From NCBI GenBank assembly GCA_048882505.1, contig JBHLRO010000009.1:30001-62000 (forward strand): a stretch of 32,000 nucleotides of DNA. The letters are read 5' to 3'. Shown one piece after another: positions 1,998 to 30,027 of the stretch. Both the position numbers and the translations under genes were made by a program. The stretch comes from Candidatus Thorarchaeota archaeon. Lineage in GTDB: Archaea > Asgardarchaeota > Heimdallarchaeia > Hodarchaeales > Hodarchaeaceae. The notes beneath the pieces are model-generated. The model saw only the letters and a program-made list of their open reading frames with translations. It was not told where the DNA came from and searched no databases. The first letter of the stretch is position 1; every line of letters begins with the position of its first letter.

Positions 1998-2312
1998 TTA
2001 TTTGACCCGTTTGATTATATGCCAGCCATATTTAGTTTTAACAGGAATTTGCGTCATCTCGCCCTTCTTCAGGGCAAAAGCTGCCTTTTCAAATTCCCTA
2101 ACTGTTTTTCCTCGTGTAATGAATCCAATATTTCCGCCTTTTTTTCCACTAGAATCCAAAGAGTGCTCGCGGGCCATTTGTTCAAACTGTGCTCCAGTAT
2201 TAATCAGTTCGATTAGTTCCTCCGCCTTGGTTCTCCCTTTGATAAGTATATGTTTTACCTGGATCTTGCCTGACATTCTGAAATCACGAAATTGAAGCCA
2301 GAGTAATTTCAT
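1998..2312 (-). CDS. ppiC: Single-domain parvulin-type peptidyl-prolyl cis-trans isomerase
   Basis: VKHILIK, FEQMAREHSLD, GGNIGF, VREFEKAAF and TKYGWHII rotamase motifs. Start is either ATG 2312 (ATGA overlap with the upstream stop) or ATG 2276 (MSGKIQVKH). Confidence 0.95.
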   Translation of the reverse strand: MKLLWLQFRDFRMSGKIQVKHILIKGRTKAEELIELINTGAQFEQMAREHSLDSSGKKGGNIGFITRGKTVREFEKAAFALKKGEMTQIPVKTKYGWHIIKRVK

Positions 2313-3169
2313 TTAGGATTTTTCTGTTTAATTATAGTTTTAGGAATTTTTTCTTTGTAAGTAAGAGGTGGCTGGGATTTATCCTTTCTTGATGGAGTTT
2401 TATTACGAATTGATGGTGGAGGACGCTTATTTACTGTCTTCTTGGGGATTTTGGTTTTCGTTCCGTGAGGCGACCTTTTCTGTTTACCAGGAGTTTTGTT
2501 TTTTATATTCTGAGGCGGCTGCTGATTTGCATTCTTTTTAGATTTAAGAGTAGGTGGTAATCGCCTGATTCGATTCTTTGGGATTGATTTATCTTTATCC
2601 GTGACGGGAGGTGGTCTGTTCACCCTATTCTTAACTTTAGATTTAGCGGAACCCAGTTTTGTTGGATGAATTCTCCTAGAAGCGGTACCTGGAGTCTTTT
2701 CACTGATTTTAGGAGGTAATGGCTGATTTCTCACCCCATTCGTCTCTGAATTTTTCCTTCCCGCTCTAGAGGGAGGTCGTTTGGCTTTAATTTCAGTTTT
2801 TGGCGGGGAAACGCTACTAGTGTTAGCTTGTTCTTTAATTTTGAATTTCTTTTCAGATAACCTTTCATTATTTGGGATAGGGTCTTCAAGAATGATTGGG
2901 GGTGTAACGTTAACAAATTCTTCTTTCCTTGATTTTTTTGGCCTAAAACCCTCCCTAGAGGGAATGAAAGGCTCCTCCTTGGGAATATCTGCGATCGAAT
3001 CTTGACGTGGGGGTGGAATTTCGAATCCTTTTAGCTTTGACGATGAATCAGGGGTCTTATGTTTGATAAATGCTGAGGAATTGGAATCAGGAGTCTTTTC
3101 TTTGATAAATTCTGAAATGGAGTCCTTGGGGATCTTATCTTTAATTTTCTTTGATTTTCTTAAACCCAT
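2309..3169 (-). CDS. Lys/Arg/Pro/Ser-rich, predicted intrinsically disordered protein
   Basis: 286-codon ORF with a GGTGGAG RBS-like element before the ATG. No hydrophobic core. Recurrent KTP, IPK and (R/Q/L)PP motifs. Stop overlaps the parvulin ATG. Confidence 0.75.
   Translation of the reverse strand: MGLRKSKKIKDKIPKDSISEFIKEKTPDSNSSAFIKHKTPDSSSKLKGFEIPPPRQDSIADIPKEEPFIPSREGFRPKKSRKEEFVNVTPPIILEDPIPNNERLSEKKFKIKEQANTSSVSPPKTEIKAKRPPSRAGRKNSETNGVRNQPLPPKISEKTPGTASRRIHPTKLGSAKSKVKNRVNRPPPVTDKDKSIPKNRIRRLPPTLKSKKNANQQPPQNIKNKTPGKQKRSPHGTKTKIPKKTVNKRPPPSIRNKTPSRKDKSQPPLTYKEKIPKTIIKQKNPK
3045..3115. repeat. 39-bp-period intragenic tandem duplication (SEFIKEKTPDSNS / SAFIKHKTPDSSS)
   Basis: gaatcaggggtcttatgtttgataaatgctga (3045-3076) vs gaatcaggagtcttttctttgataaattctga (3084-3115): 28/32 identical. 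Confidence 0.9.
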
Positions 3170-3283: not shown

Positions 3284-3871
3284 TTATCTCCCCATCACGA
3301 AACCGACTCCAGAAATCAGGAAAAACAGTCCATATAAAACGCCAATCAGGTCATGTGAGTAGTAGTAACCCACCATAAGAAACAATGTCCCGAAAATAAA
3401 GAATGTAATTATGGCAGTCCACTCTGCACTAGGACCCCTTTGGGATTGGGCGGTAATGCGTATGAATTGGTATCGTGTGAAACTACGGATTAACAATGCG
3501 GAAGAAACAGCCAAGTAAGGGAATGCCAAAATAGAGGCCAGCCCGATCGAGAGGGTAGCTGTTTCATTGCCCGGAAGAACATTGATAACAAAGGAAAGCA
3601 TGGAGTTTCGACCCAGGGGGAACATCGGTGCTACAAAAAGCACTAACAAAGGAATGATATTAGCTAGCGAGAGGAAATAAATTTCATTCAGCGTGGCTTT
3701 ATGATCTAGATAAAAAAACATACGTAAAAAATAGAATATTGTGACTGTTGCGTAAAGAGTTAAAAACAACAAATCCAAGGCAGTTTCATCTTGTTGTTGT
3801 ATAAAGAAGAATACAGTGGCCGAAATCCCTAATAAAAAAGCAAAAGAGGCGAGTGTGTGACGAGCAGCCAT
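3284..3871 (-). CDS. ~6-TM integral membrane protein; RING-less paralog of the membrane domain of 4064..5173
   Basis: Six hydrophobic segments. From ATG 3871 (MAARHT) it aligns without gaps and in register with the adjacent protein over residues 1-92. This favours ATG 3871 over the TTG 3904 used by the ORF track. Confidence 0.8.
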   Translation of the reverse strand: MAARHTLASFAFLLGISATVFFFIQQQDETALDLLFLTLYATVTIFYFLRMFFYLDHKATLNEIYFLSLANIIPLLVLFVAPMFPLGRNSMLSFVINVLPGNETATLSIGLASILAFPYLAVSSALLIRSFTRYQFIRITAQSQRGPSAEWTAIITFFIFGTLFLMVGYYYSHDLIGVLYGLFFLISGVGFVMGR

Positions 3872-4014
3872 GGTAATGTCATCTATTTGGGTATTCTGGA
3901 TCAATCTTCGATAGTGCGGGTTAAATCAAATATATTCTTGACTAATAAAATACCTACGTTTACCAAACTGGGCAGTCACCAACTTGATTCCACTCTCATC
4001 TAGACAGAAACCAG

Positions 4015-4030
4015 ATCCATTATAATGGAT
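4015..4030. promoter_or_regulatory. Perfect 16-bp palindrome ATCCATTATAATGGAT in the intergenic gap (candidate operator or hairpin)
   Basis: Direct reading. Centred on a TTATAA TATA-like core, between the two paralogous membrane genes. Confidence 0.4.
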
Positions 4031-4063
4031 TTCTTATTGAAGTCATCCGGTTCTGACAGCATT

Positions 4064-5173
4064 TCACCTTCCCTTGTTATATAATTTGATTATCTGGGCA
4101 TATTGCCGTCCTGACACTCGAATAGCGGAAGAAGAGGAGAGGCGTTTGTTACATCGCGAGCAGGTTCCTGCTACTGCGATCCACTTCTGAAATTCATTAC
4201 CATGTGCAGGATATCTGCAGTGTGGACAGATCACCACATCTTTGTGATCTTCTATTGGAAACTCATAACAAAAGATACATCTAAAATCATCTTTGCTAAT
4301 ATTTCTTCCCATAGGGACATATTTAGACAAATTAGTTCTTGTTACTTTCGCCATATTCTGTTGGGCAGTCTGTACCTGTAATCCGGGAGCCACACGGACA
4401 TCCCGACGGATATTTTGGATCCGAGAAGCAGCACTTCGAGTGTCTGATGATAATCTGGGTTGTGAGGAGCGCCGTTCTGATATTGATCTACGATCTCTTG
4501 ATGATCTCGATCGTATCGTCCGAGAAGAGGTCTGTCGGGTACGAGGAACCCGTTTAAACGGAACAAGAACAATTTTCAGTATATAATGTTGAATAAATAA
4601 ACCCAAACTTAAGATACAAAACAGTAAGCCCCCAAATTCAATTAATCCCTGTTCAATCCAATAAAGGAAGAATATGATGACCAAGGTAAAATTATGAATA
4701 ATCACCGCTTCGTTCGGAAATGGACGTCGATTTATAAAAAATTTAGGATACTGGCCAATATAATAACGGCGAAGAAGTATAAGCAGCGCTCCCATTGATG
4801 GGATCACGATAATTAAACCAAAGAGGTTCCAGAAAATCCTTACGCGACCTAAAGTCAGAAAACTTAAATCTAATGACATATCGAAAAGAGAAGTCTGGAA
4901 CATATCATTAATCCCAAGGGAAGCCAGGTGAGCCAAGAGGCTTCCCCCCGCCCCTATGACAGTGGGAATCACAAGGAAGGTTGCAGAGGCCAATGGCGCG
5001 TTATATGACCTAAAATACCGCCATTCATCTATTAGTTTAATCAGGAGAAGGGTAATAAAGGTGAGAAAGAAGAACGTCAATGCGACGTTCTGAGGCTGCC
5101 CCACGACCAGGGAAAGAATGCCGAAGACAAATCCAATGACAAACACACCGATGTAGGTATTCCGTTTGATCAC
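4064..5173 (-). CDS. Multi-pass membrane protein with Arg/Ser-rich linker and C-terminal RING-variant zinc finger (putative membrane-anchored E3 ligase)
   Basis: About 6 hydrophobic helices in aa 1-205 and an R/S-rich linker. Finger is CIFC-x13-CPHC-x4-H-x2-E-FQKW-x6-CSRC at aa 299-341. Lies directly downstream of E1/E2/JAB. Confidence 0.8.
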   Translation of the reverse strand: MIKRNTYIGVFVIGFVFGILSLVVGQPQNVALTFFFLTFITLLLIKLIDEWRYFRSYNAPLASATFLVIPTVIGAGGSLLAHLASLGINDMFQTSLFDMSLDLSFLTLGRVRIFWNLFGLIIVIPSMGALLILLRRYYIGQYPKFFINRRPFPNEAVIIHNFTLVIIFFLYWIEQGLIEFGGLLFCILSLGLFIQHYILKIVLVPFKRVPRTRQTSSRTIRSRSSRDRRSISERRSSQPRLSSDTRSAASRIQNIRRDVRVAPGLQVQTAQQNMAKVTRTNLSKYVPMGRNISKDDFRCIFCYEFPIEDHKDVVICPHCRYPAHGNEFQKWIAVAGTCSRCNKRLSSSSAIRVSGRQYAQIIKLYNKGR

Positions 5174-5207: not shown

Positions 5208-6023
5208 TTATTCGTGGTCATATTCTAGAAACATCGTTTTACCTTCTGCTAAAGGTAACAAGGTTTGGATCATTTGGGGGAGACTTTCTAAGGGACAATT
5301 CAAAACTCGAAAACTTGGCTCCTCCCACGTCCGTAGATCTTTCCGTAATCGAAAAATCTTAAATCCATAAGAAGAGGAGGAAATTTCGGTCGGATCAATA
5401 ACCAAAGCGATGGGAGCTGCCAAATGAGAACCTTGACTGCCAAGCCTTTGGTAACGTACCTGGGTTTGAAAATCCGTTTTACTCATGAAAGGGGAATAGG
5501 ATGGATGAGAATGATACCACCCGAGAATCCGGTGCCCTTCCTTCACCGCATCCTCATAAACTTTCACCATACTTTGCGGATCTTGGATTTGAGCATTGAC
5601 ATTTGTACCGTGTCCAATTGGATAGGCATCCGTAATCACCAAGCATGTTAAAGGGGTGTTTGGATGTTCCACATGTCCCGTAAGAAGGCCAATGACCTCT
5701 ACCCATTCAGAGCGTGGAAGAGAATCATTAGCATACTTTAAAGCATGAAGCGCCAGCTTTAGATATGCTTTAAGGTTAAGTTTCACCCGAGGTGGCTCAT
5801 GAAGTTCACCTAAATCAGCGTCCAAATCAGTTACAACATCATCTGTCCTGTGTTTTGTATCCGTCCGCGTAGCTGGAGGAGATCGATCTTCATCGGAATG
5901 GAGGGTCATGACCGAAGGTGTTCTAGGGTATGATCCCTTAGATAATGCCCGTTCCAGTGATTTATCAGGGGTAGAGACTTTCAATGTGATAGTTGACAAT
6001 TTGGGGTCGAACATCAATGACAC
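5208..6023 (-). CDS. JAB1/MPN+ (JAMM) metallo-isopeptidase, Rpn11/CSN5-like deubiquitinase
   Basis: WVEVIGLL (catalytic Glu) and GWYHSHPSYSPFMSKTD (H-x-H-x7-S-x2-D), followed by ALVIDP. Start uncertain (GTG 6023, ATG 6014 or ATG 5909). Confidence 0.92.
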   Translation of the reverse strand: MSLMFDPKLSTITLKVSTPDKSLERALSKGSYPRTPSVMTLHSDEDRSPPATRTDTKHRTDDVVTDLDADLGELHEPPRVKLNLKAYLKLALHALKYANDSLPRSEWVEVIGLLTGHVEHPNTPLTCLVITDAYPIGHGTNVNAQIQDPQSMVKVYEDAVKEGHRILGWYHSHPSYSPFMSKTDFQTQVRYQRLGSQGSHLAAPIALVIDPTEISSSSYGFKIFRLRKDLRTWEEPSFRVLNCPLESLPQMIQTLLPLAEGKTMFLEYDHE

Positions 6024-6114: not shown

Positions 6115-6642
6115 CTACCATTTTTTGTTGGCATATTTCTTTGTAATCTCTTGAGCTTTTTTCTTAAACTTCTCAGGACTATTCAAGTACTCTACGGCGG
6201 CCTTCTTATTGAAAACATCCCTAGGGTTAGTATATGCGGCATCCACATCGAACATTGCAAGGATGGAATGAATCACCGTGGTAATATTTTTGGAAGGTGA
6301 CCACCCATCGGGCCGTCCAACTAGATCGGGGTCAACGAGAGCCAAACAAATATTCCGTTTCCCTTTATATTCATCAGGCTTAGGCCAAAAGTTAGGATGC
6401 CAGATTGGAGTATGTAAACGGACGAATGGGGGTACATAGGGATAATTTCCTCCGAACTTGATTTCAAGCTTGAATTTACCCTTCTGGTAGGGAGTCCCTT
6501 TAGGCCCTTCAAGTAGCAGAGCCAGATGTTCAACAGATTTTTTTGGTCCGGGGAAGGCTTTCAGCTGTTTTATTGTGCCGCTTTTGTACAGCTTCTTCAG
6601 CTGATTATAATCTTTGGAGATGCGTTTTATTCGAATTGAAAT
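6115..6642 (-). CDS. Ubiquitin-conjugating enzyme E2 (UBC fold), 175 aa, probable non-canonical ATT start
   Basis: Hand translation: ISIRIKRISKDYNQL...LLEGPKGTPYQKGKFKLEIKFGGNYPYVPPFVRLHTPIWHPNFWPKPDEYKGKRNIC(99)LALVDPDLVGRPDGWSPSKNITTVIHSI...NKKAAVEY...FKKKAQEITKKYA. Contains KRI, GP-x2-TPY-x2-G, YPxxPP, HPN, catalytic Cys and WSP. The ORF track shows only the last 76 aa. The frame is closed upstream by TGA at 6675-6673. Confidence 0.92.
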   Translation of the reverse strand: MSIRIKRISKDYNQLKKLYKSGTIKQLKAFPGPKKSVEHLALLLEGPKGTPYQKGKFKLEIKFGGNYPYVPPFVRLHTPIWHPNFWPKPDEYKGKRNICLALVDPDLVGRPDGWSPSKNITTVIHSILAMFDVDAAYTNPRDVFNKKAAVEYLNSPEKFKKKAQEITKKYANKKW

Positions 6643-6650
6643 TGGGGTAA

Positions 6651-6656
6651 ACCTCC
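6651..6656 (-). promoter_or_regulatory. Shine-Dalgarno GGAGGT ahead of the E2 ATT codon
   Basis: Minus strand reads TAG-GAGGT-TTACCCCA-ATT. GGAGG overlaps the E1 stop and ends 9 nt before ATT 6642. Confidence 0.7.
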
Positions 6657-28272: not shown

Positions 28273-30027
28273 ATGGAACCAATCTTAGATTTATCCGATC
28301 GACAATGGTTTAAAGCAGGTTTATGGCCAGAGGAAACCCCTAAACATATGGAATATCCCGAAGATTTCCCTATCTGGAAATATCTGGAAGAATCTGCATA
28401 TACGAATCCTGATAATGTGGCGACAATATTTTTCGATGCAAAAATTACATATAAAGAGTTATGGGAAAGAGTGTTACGATTTGCTGATTCCTTACAGAAA
28501 CTGGGTATTAAGAAGGGGGACAGAATCGGAATCTACCTACCTAACTGCCCACAATTTGTAATTTCGTTTTTTGCAATCAATCGATTAGGAGCTACTATTG
28601 TTCCGTTTAATACGCAATACGTTGACCATGAATTGACTTATCAGCTGAATGATTCTGGAGCTCGAACCATCATTACCATAGATATCACCTATGGGCGGGT
28701 ACGAAATCTTAGGAAGCGTGGAAAGGCCGAACTGGATCACATTATTGTAGCTTCTTTGCATGATGAATTACCTACTTCAAAACGGATTCTCGGTATCCTG
28801 ACTGGAAAATTGCCGCTTAGAAAGAGAATAAATCCAGAGGATCTCTCATTTAATGCCCTAATTAGGGACGGAAACCCTGAAAATGTTCCTGATGTCCCAA
28901 TTAATCCGAAGGAAGACCTTGCACTCATCCAATATACAGGTGGAACCACGGGCGTCAGCAAGGGAACAATGTTAACTCACTTTAATGTCATTAGCAATCA
29001 GATTCAAACCCATGCACTCTACTATCCTCCTGCAAGGCACGGTATGGAAACTTGGGTGGTTGTGCTTCCCTTGTTCCACATTTATGCCTTGAACGTGTGT
29101 ATGATTGCCTCGATAGCGTTTGCAGGAAAGATGATTCTAATCACAGATCCTTTGGCAGGGAGACCAATCTTACAGGATCTCCTGGAAACCCTAGCAAAAT
29201 ATAAACCAACATATTTCCACGCAGTTCCAAGCCTGTATCTCGGTTTATGCTTTCATAAAGATATAAAAGACTATGACCTAACGTCAATCAACGCCTGCCT
29301 ATCTGGAGCCGCTCCTCTGCCAGAACAGGTCATGTATAATTTTGAGGAACTCACAGGAGCGAACGTTGTTGAAGGATACGGACTAACAGAGACTAGCCCT
29401 GTAACTCATGTGAATCCCTTTACTCCAGGAGGAAAACGTGCGGGCAGTATCGGTTTTCCAATTCCAGATACAGATGCTCGAATATTTGACCTAAAAGACG
29501 GAAATAAGGAATTGCCGATCGGAGAAGGCAACGAAGGGGAGATTGGGATTAAGGGCCCTCAGGTAATGAAGGGATACTGGAACAAGCCTGAAGAAACCAA
29601 GAACACCTTCAATGATTCGGGGTACTTCTTAACGGGAGATGTAGGGTACATTGATGAAGATGGCTATTTCTATATTACTGGCCGAAAAAAGAACATGATT
29701 GACGTGTCTGGGCTAAAGGTATACCCGCGAGAAGTTGAGGAGTTAATCATTGAACATCCGGCAATTCAAGAGGTTGCAGTGATAGGGATTCCTCATAAGA
29801 TAAAAGGCGAGGAAGTTGCTGCATTCGTTGTCCTGAAGGATGACGAGACAGCTTCTTCGGAAGAAATTATAGAATTTTGTAAAGGCCGAATTGCCCGTTT
29901 CAAAGTCCCACGAAAGGTTTTCTTCATCGATGAGTTACCGAAATCGGCGATTGGCAAGGTGTTGCACAGAGAGCTTCGCGACGAAGTATGGAAAAAGGCC
30001 GGCCGAAAGCGATCAATTGCTGGCTAA
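28273..30027 (+). CDS. fadD: Long-chain fatty acid-CoA ligase (AMP-binding family)
   Basis: YTGGTTGVSKG, PLFH, SGAAPL, EGYGLTETSP, TGDVG, RKKNMI, KSAIGK. RBS AGGTGA. Confidence 0.92.
   Translation: MEPILDLSDRQWFKAGLWPEETPKHMEYPEDFPIWKYLEESAYTNPDNVATIFFDAKITYKELWERVLRFADSLQKLGIKKGDRIGIYLPNCPQFVISFFAINRLGATIVPFNTQYVDHELTYQLNDSGARTIITIDITYGRVRNLRKRGKAELDHIIVASLHDELPTSKRILGILTGKLPLRKRINPEDLSFNALIRDGNPENVPDVPINPKEDLALIQYTGGTTGVSKGTMLTHFNVISNQIQTHALYYPPARHGMETWVVVLPLFHIYALNVCMIASIAFAGKMILITDPLAGRPILQDLLETLAKYKPTYFHAVPSLYLGLCFHKDIKDYDLTSINACLSGAAPLPEQVMYNFEELTGANVVEGYGLTETSPVTHVNPFTPGGKRAGSIGFPIPDTDARIFDLKDGNKELPIGEGNEGEIGIKGPQVMKGYWNKPEETKNTFNDSGYFLTGDVGYIDEDGYFYITGRKKNMIDVSGLKVYPREVEELIIEHPAIQEVAVIGIPHKIKGEEVAAFVVLKDDETASSEEIIEFCKGRIARFKVPRKVFFIDELPKSAIGKVLHRELRDEVWKKAGRKRSIAG

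Follow-up and report, generated by a model that had tools for sequence, protein, structure and literature searches.

The window, as the whole analysed stretch of 32,000 nucleotides (nt) is called here (positions 30,001 to 62,000 of contig JBHLRO010000009.1, assembly GCA_048882505.1, Candidatus Thorarchaeota archaeon), derives from a 4.3-Mb genome that is 94.6% complete and carries a ubiquitin operon on its minus strand. Read from position 8863 to position 3284, the operon consists of two ubiquitin-like genes, E1, E2, a JAMM/MPN deubiquitinase gene and finally two genes encoding membrane proteins, in the following referred to as A and B. Gene A (4064–5173) encodes 369 amino acids (aa) from a GTG start and is separated by a spacer of 192 nt (3872–4063) from gene B (3284–3871), which encodes 195 aa from an ATG start; the start positions of both genes coincide with the N-termini of their orthologues. 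The membrane domains of A and B are very probably ancient and very distant paralogues, a RING-like domain is found in A only, and the two proteins may together form one membrane-bound ubiquitin ligase.

The five genes preceding A, all on the same strand, were assigned by Pfam and phmmer searches. The first ubiquitin-like gene (8513–8863) matches the Pfam ubiquitin model with an expectation value (E) of 2.5e-7. The second (7919–8383, 154 aa) falls below the Pfam thresholds (Rad60-SLD, E 0.012) and was identified by phmmer, in which its product matches ubiquitin-like open reading frames (ORFs) of other genomes with E 1e-31 to 1e-37, the same ones that are matched by the product of 8513–8863. They are followed by E1 (6656–7900; ThiF family, E 5.3e-52), E2 (6115 to ~6642; UQ_con, E 4.5e-26 with the frame read from 6630) and, directly upstream of A, the JAMM/MPN deubiquitinase gene (5208–6023; JAB, E 5.5e-14).

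Neither A nor B has a Pfam match as a whole protein (A tested at E 0.01), and no further copy of either domain was found in their own genome. The nearest protein matches to both carry the names Candidatus Heimdallarchaeota, Hodarchaeales and Hodarchaeum. A collection of 5.8 billion proteins contained 40 orthologues of A, all of them proteins from Heimdall/Hodarchaeales metagenome-assembled genomes, and 69 of B. When the A membrane profile was used in an exhaustive HMMER search of 1.84 billion proteins, 42 cluster representatives were recovered. All of them were A-like, one and the same Cys/His motif was present at the C-terminus of every full-length one, and neither B nor a different architecture occurred among the matches at E ≤ 0.001.

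The AlphaFold2 model of A, made from the family alignment, has a predicted local distance difference test (pLDDT) score of 78 overall and of ~90 in the membrane domain (aa 1–207, positions 4553–5173). This domain is predicted to consist of helices 2–23, 28–56 and 64–80, a beta-hairpin at 95–116 and helices 117–139, 155–175 and 180–207. It is followed by a linker (aa 208–285, positions 4319–4552) that is Arg/Ser-rich, poor in lysine and predicted to be disordered (pLDDT < 50 for residues 207–273), and which resembles a "lysine desert" beside a RING. The corresponding model of B (mean pLDDT 85, predicted template modelling score 0.79) contains helices 2–24, 28–57 and 61–83, a beta-hairpin at 90–110 and helices 111–133, 147–171 and 175–194, and the protein stops two residues past helix 6. 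Six long helices and a beta-hairpin within ~195–207 residues in both models agree with the first-pass annotation of the window, which had estimated membrane domains of about 195–200 aa with about six transmembrane segments. By the positive-inside rule, the N-terminus, loops 2–3 and 4–5 and the C-terminus of both proteins are predicted to be cytoplasmic and the hairpin to lie outside, so that the C-terminal domain of A would be on the same side of the membrane as E1 and E2. A search for an internal repeat of three plus three helices was negative for both A and B (P 0.07 and 0.69, respectively).

The C-terminal domain of A (aa 286–369, positions 4067–4318) contains the conserved residues C299, C302, C316, C319, H324, E327, W331, C338 and C341, giving the ligand pattern C-x2-C-x13-C-x2-C-x4-H-x2-E-x10-C-x2-C. 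The family profile of this domain, when compared with sequences in the PDB, has the RING-H2 finger of RNF24 (2ep4) as its best match (E 1.3e-4). The CxxC pairs, the His at ligand 5 and the invariant Trp (W331) four residues past the ligand-6 position align between the two, while the finger of A differs in having CxxC and not CxH as its second ligand pair, four residues ahead of the His and Glu at ligand 6. Structural comparison of residues 290–369 of the model pointed in the same direction, with matches to 3lrq_A (Z 9.7, root mean square deviation (rmsd) 4.0 Å, 74 residues aligned), Ring1b 2ckl_B (Z 8.4, 3.0 Å, 69 residues) and the Prp19 U-box 2bay_A (Z 7.4, 1.5 Å, 56 residues) and with Foldseek probabilities of 0.9–1.0 for the RING/U-box matches. 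Two observations call for caution in assigning ligase activity. The finger has seven invariant Cys/His residues and an invariant Glu (E327) occupying the ligand-6 position, and no Pfam RING model scored above threshold for the isolated finger, for which Prok-RING_1 (18.3 bits, cut-off 29.1), zf-RING_2 (11 bits, cut-off 27.3) and zf-RING_16 appeared below it. The model thus indicates a RING/U-box fold with an atypical finger, and A is probably the membrane RING-type E3 of this operon. That only one of the two proteins carries a RING, as was first proposed, holds true, since B ends after helix 6 and is devoid of a Cys/His motif.

The proposal that A and B are paralogues had been based on an alignment without gaps from residue 1 over 92 positions, with 19 identities besides Met1, and this count was reproduced exactly. 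When B was shuffled, the same register gave 8.5±2.5 identities (p ~5e-5). A profile-profile comparison of 38 A membrane domains with 67 B sequences in hhalign gave a probability of 35–40% (P 3e-4) and a score of 32, compared with 14.5±2.7 for profiles shuffled within blocks of 10 columns, a procedure that keeps the hydrophobicity pattern, and 13 for the reversed profile. With 65 A sequences the probability rose to 93% (P 3e-7) and the score to 50 over 169 colinear columns (A 9–186 against B 10–181). The controls for this deeper profile reached 14.7±2.9 (maximum 25) for shuffling within blocks and 24.8±5.7 (maximum 44) for shuffling of the block order, so that the score lies ~12 standard deviations (SD) above the shuffles that keep hydrophobicity and above every shuffled or reversed control. 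The growth of the score from 32 to 50 with a deeper A profile is the pattern expected of true homology. The weaker similarity that had been pointed out further along the proteins (the ALL...RY region) falls inside the same colinear alignment.

Support also came from single sequences. Using BLASTP, B of the window matches an A orthologue from another family (L006:8555-9658, family f4) over 75 ungapped residues with 32% identity (E 1e-6), and two genomes contain A-like ORFs that the B profile matches directly (E 1.7e-5 and 1.3e-4). When the N-terminal halves of the two families were compared, hhalign gave a probability of 91% (P 1e-6), the signal coming mostly from helices 1–3.

The predicted folds agree as well. 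In both models three helices are followed by a beta-hairpin and then by another three helices, and the hairpin between helices 3 and 4 is an unusual feature. In a Foldseek search of 2.3 million AlphaFold DB clusters the B model retrieved its own orthologue at rank 1 and, at rank 2, a "RING-type domain-containing protein" of the A family (residues 5–183, TM-score 0.68, E 1.5e-4, 18% identity), with the next match at a TM-score of 0.22 and nothing better than 0.22–0.42 further down. Conversely, the A model retrieved a B orthologue at rank 9 (probability 1.0, TM-score by hit 0.56). A shared fold, as far as two predicted structures can tell, is thereby indicated in both directions. The profile-profile, pairwise and structural evidence agree in pointing to the ancient duplication that the first-pass annotation had suggested, and we consider it very probable that A and B are ancient and very distant paralogues.

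Among solved structures, no relative of the modelled membrane fold could be detected. Foldseek against the PDB gave no match at E ≤ 0.001 for either membrane domain, and VIA-align of B against 48,161 chains revealed only designed helical repeats and helical hairpins (best Z 10.0). No PDB sequence reached E ≤ 10 with the HMMER profile of either the A membrane domain or B, and feature and shape searches of the ESM Atlas gave scores only in the chance range. A kinship with the membrane domains of Hrd1, Derlin or MARCH, which had been raised as a possibility, was supported by neither sequence nor structure searches: among the Foldseek and VIA matches listed for either model there was no Derlin, rhomboid or MARCH protein, which does not by itself exclude these families. 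Residues 1–141 of the A model align with human HRD1 (9uav_B) over 113 residues with Z 8.2 and rmsd 3.4 Å, values in a range that is common among helical proteins, and the best 50 structural matches listed for B do not include HRD1; this partial match to the model is a lead only. Nothing was found in support of a channel function, the other role initially considered.

The most conserved stretch of B is the cytoplasmic loop between helices 4 and 5 (aa 129–150, positions 3422–3487), in which R129, S130, F131, Y134, F136, I137, R138, S143, G146, P147, A149 and E150 are invariant. In hhalign this loop aligns with the Arg-rich loop of A (residues 135–156), and it is partly disordered in the model, with low confidence at residues 137–144. 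Within the genus, B proteins are 58–70% identical to the protein of the window, compared with 41–48% for the membrane domain of A, and the number of invariant columns is 32 in B compared with 12 in the A membrane domain. Conserved polar residues of the membrane domains are E50, N116 and E179 in A and N62, E63, N71 and D174 in B, which may line a lateral cavity.

The distribution of the two genes was analysed in 400 genomes of the phylum. B was found in 54 genomes, all of them within four lineages of family rank in the class of the window (f1 18/21, f2 2/2, f4 24/31 and f6 9/12) and A in 51 genomes of the same four lineages. Of the 55 genomes with at least one of the two genes, 50 have both; the remaining five are 68–88% complete, and no genome of at least 90% completeness was seen with only one. 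Since both copies occur in the four lineages, the duplication is older than their split. Of the 50 genomes with both genes, 42 have them side by side on one strand with A preceding B (17/18, 2/2, 21/23 and 2/7 for f1, f2, f4 and f6, respectively). The cassette E2-JAMM-A-B recurs at loci from three other families (f2, f4 and f6), and the spacer between A and B measures 1 nt in locus L003 and, going by the ORF calls, 41–83 nt in five further loci. The genera that have the operon E2 are largely those with A and B, and like these two genes it is missing from families f3, f5 and f7. A and B are part of the ubiquitin cassette and have stayed together from a time before the four lineages diverged. 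A weak match to the B profile (E 6e-5) was also seen in G045:C122:1928-2206, a region interrupted by two TGA codons and one TAG; it is possibly an additional copy of this domain that has decayed.

B and the linker of A are poor in lysine. B has 1 Lys and 8 Arg and thereby ranks within the bottom 1.6% of 311 membrane ORFs from the same genome, although this comparison set consists of crude ORF calls from one genome, which lessens its weight as support. The family mean of K/(K+R) is 0.23 for B, compared with a membrane median of 0.44, and the A linker has a family mean of 2.2 Lys and 15.5 Arg (K/(K+R) 0.12), while the RING domain of A has a normal value of 0.56. The low lysine content of B and of the A linker would fit proteins that reside beside an active ligase and escape self-modification.

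The reading frame of E2 (6115–6672) is intact and has no ATG, GTG or TTG upstream of the catalytic Cys; a GGAGGT overlaps the stop codon of E1 and an ATT is situated 8 nt downstream of this motif, suggesting that this ATT is likely a non-canonical start of E2. A frameshift in E2 was considered and rejected, as the frame is continuous and only a canonical start codon is missing. Standard ORF callers give only a C-terminal fragment of 76 aa for this gene. Directly downstream of B, on the minus strand (1998–3169), lies a gene for a Pro/Lys-rich low-complexity protein of 286 aa, overlapping the start of a gene for a parvulin-type peptidyl-prolyl isomerase. Neither was found by phmmer in the cassette loci of other families, and both are therefore probably outside the system.

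Taken together, these observations are best explained by a model in which A is the membrane-anchored RING-type E3 of the operon and a disordered linker of ~80 residues, poor in lysine, holds the RING in the cytoplasm, where this domain could meet the operon E2 charged with ubiquitin. B would be co-expressed with A, would most likely assemble with it via the homologous membrane domains and would thus contribute the subunit without a RING to a hetero-oligomeric ubiquitin ligase in the membrane. The substrates marked by such a complex at the cytoplasmic face would be embedded in the membrane or associated with it, and their marking would be reversed by the neighbouring JAMM enzyme. We give this explanation as a whole, in which the E3 activity, the assembly of A with B and the nature of the substrates are inferred, a probability of about 0.5. 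For the physical heteromer of A and B as one membrane ligase the odds are likewise about even, synteny, co-occurrence, the conservation of B and the depletion of lysine being what points to it. Paralogues of an oligomeric ancestor often co-assemble. A complex prediction using alignments of the A membrane domain and B, run without controls, scored 0.01 compared with a mark of 0.32 and is neutral on binding.

The alternative that survives best accepts the paralogy and does without a stable complex. B would then keep an ancestral function of the six-helix domain, for instance as a small transporter, receptor or membrane enzyme, while the copy in A would have been fused to the small RING protein of the operon only as an anchor or targeting module; or B would be a regulated target or competitor of A. 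The higher conservation of B than of the A membrane domain, together with its own invariant cytoplasmic loop, would suit such an independent role, and the soluble small RING protein in aigarchaeal operons (PMC5654768) fits with a later fusion. Several features of gene order also weigh against an obligatory partnership of A and B. In the window the two genes are set apart by a long, AT-rich spacer that may hold a separate promoter for B. Among the f6 genomes with both genes the pair is separated in 5 of 7, two pairs being convergent ~1 kb apart and three lying on different contigs. In an LC_3-like clade of Hodarchaeales B is located away from both A and the ubiquitin cluster (L001:8001-8591 and L014:6001-6591), flanked by a nitroreductase gene and a gene for an AAT-family acyltransferase. 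It follows from these detached copies that a tight operonic coupling is dispensable. Further, in f20, a large family of another Asgard class with nine weak, N-terminal-only matches to the A profile, the locus L012:1079-7673 (genome G234) encodes two ubiquitins, E1, E2, JAMM and an A-like protein without any B; this membrane protein has 398 aa and is matched by the A profile over roughly its first three helices only. An A-type ligase can consequently exist without B. (In L014 another ORF of 195 aa lies between B and the AAT gene; it was examined as a possible paralogue of B and rejected, with an hhalign probability of 0.5% and a weak match to DUF6512.)

Against two unconnected proteins stand the conserved A-then-B order across four families, the joint gain and loss of A and B with the operon E2, the lack of any nearly complete genome (at least 90%) with only one of the genes, and the low lysine content of B, which is hard to explain if B has nothing to do with ubiquitylation. 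We therefore regard the alternative without a complex as holding a sizeable minority share of the probability. A more far-reaching version of the heteromer, in which A and B form a pseudo-symmetric hetero-oligomer of paralogous six-helix subunits, a dedicated machine for membrane-protein ubiquitylation in Heimdallarchaeia with the RING on one subunit and the conserved loop of the other recruiting substrate, E2 or JAMM, is at present doubtful and is put forward tentatively. The role of substrate receptor or scaffold that the first-pass annotation proposed for B is likewise a candidate role only.

A second alternative is that the resemblance is not homology at all and that unrelated six-helix proteins are alike through hydrophobic composition and helix spacing. 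For the two proteins of the window the Smith-Waterman score is 59 (z 2.1–2.5), BLASTP gives E 0.09–0.27 and a neighbouring register reaches 18 identities; with such weak pairwise scores and a rival register, the two sequences alone would not prove homology. The absence of B from the HMMER matches of the A profile fits the same picture, as does the comparison of the C-terminal halves alone, which is not significant (P 0.07) although in colinear register, and which also counts against the paralogy of the full domains. Nevertheless, hydrophobic composition would not account for a score far above the shuffles that keep local hydrophobicity, for its rise with profile depth, for the composition-adjusted BLASTP link through an intermediate sequence, for the reciprocal retrieval of the two models or for the unusual hairpin in both, and chance resemblance is accordingly very improbable. 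That B, being without a RING and immediately downstream of A, is a truncated and decaying duplicate of A without function has a negligible probability, given an intact frame in 54 genomes, a mean column identity of 68%, a conservation higher than that of the A membrane domain, which is not that of a decaying copy, and its retention even at other loci.

Archaeal and Asgard operons with E1, E2, RING and JAMM genes have been described with small soluble RING proteins (PMC5654768, PMC6043591, PMC9192718, bioRxiv 10.1101/2023.07.25.550441). The operon of the window shares with those of Caldiarchaeum subterraneum and Asgard archaea, which comprise E1, E2, small RING and Rpn11 genes, the compact arrangement, the ubiquitin-like protein, a ThiF-type E1, a UBC-type E2, a JAMM/Rpn11-like deubiquitinase and a RING-type protein. 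It differs in that the RING is fused via a disordered linker to a membrane domain of 207 residues with six predicted helices, and in that a RING-less paralogue of this domain comes next. A limited literature search, which does not in itself prove novelty, turned up no account of a polytopic RING protein accompanied by a paralogue lacking the RING. What appears to be new is an Asgard operon E3, putatively assigned, in the form of a polytopic membrane protein that is coupled throughout the class to a RING-less paralogue of its own membrane domain.

Among eukaryotic systems, the Hrd1-Der1 ligase of endoplasmic-reticulum-associated degradation of luminal substrates (ERAD-L) is similar in combining a polytopic membrane ligase of the RING-H2 type, whose RING follows the last helix on the cytoplasmic side, with a polytopic partner that lacks a RING. 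Hrd1 and Der1 are, however, not paralogues of each other, and no sequence match to A or B was found, so that membership in this system is not supported and the resemblance would be one of logic only. The closest precedent for paralogues assembling as one membrane E3 is Pex2-Pex10-Pex12 (PMC9279156), a heteromeric membrane ubiquitin ligase of related polytopic subunits whose membrane domains are packed together. All three peroxins keep their RING finger while B has none, and the searches with the membrane domains revealed no similarity to them in either structure or sequence. To our knowledge, multi-subunit membrane ubiquitin ligases (the Hrd1-Der1, Pex2/10/12, Dsc and Asi complexes) are otherwise known from eukaryotes, and Heimdallarchaeia are counted among the closest known archaeal relatives of eukaryotes. 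If A and B assemble, they would constitute an archaeal multi-subunit membrane ubiquitin ligase, and being a compact system of seven genes with defined partners it is directly testable. The system bears on the origin of ubiquitin-dependent surveillance or sorting of membrane proteins, and should the pseudo-symmetric machine prove true, a ubiquitylation of membrane proteins in archaea resembling ERAD or endocytic sorting would predate the origin of eukaryotes.

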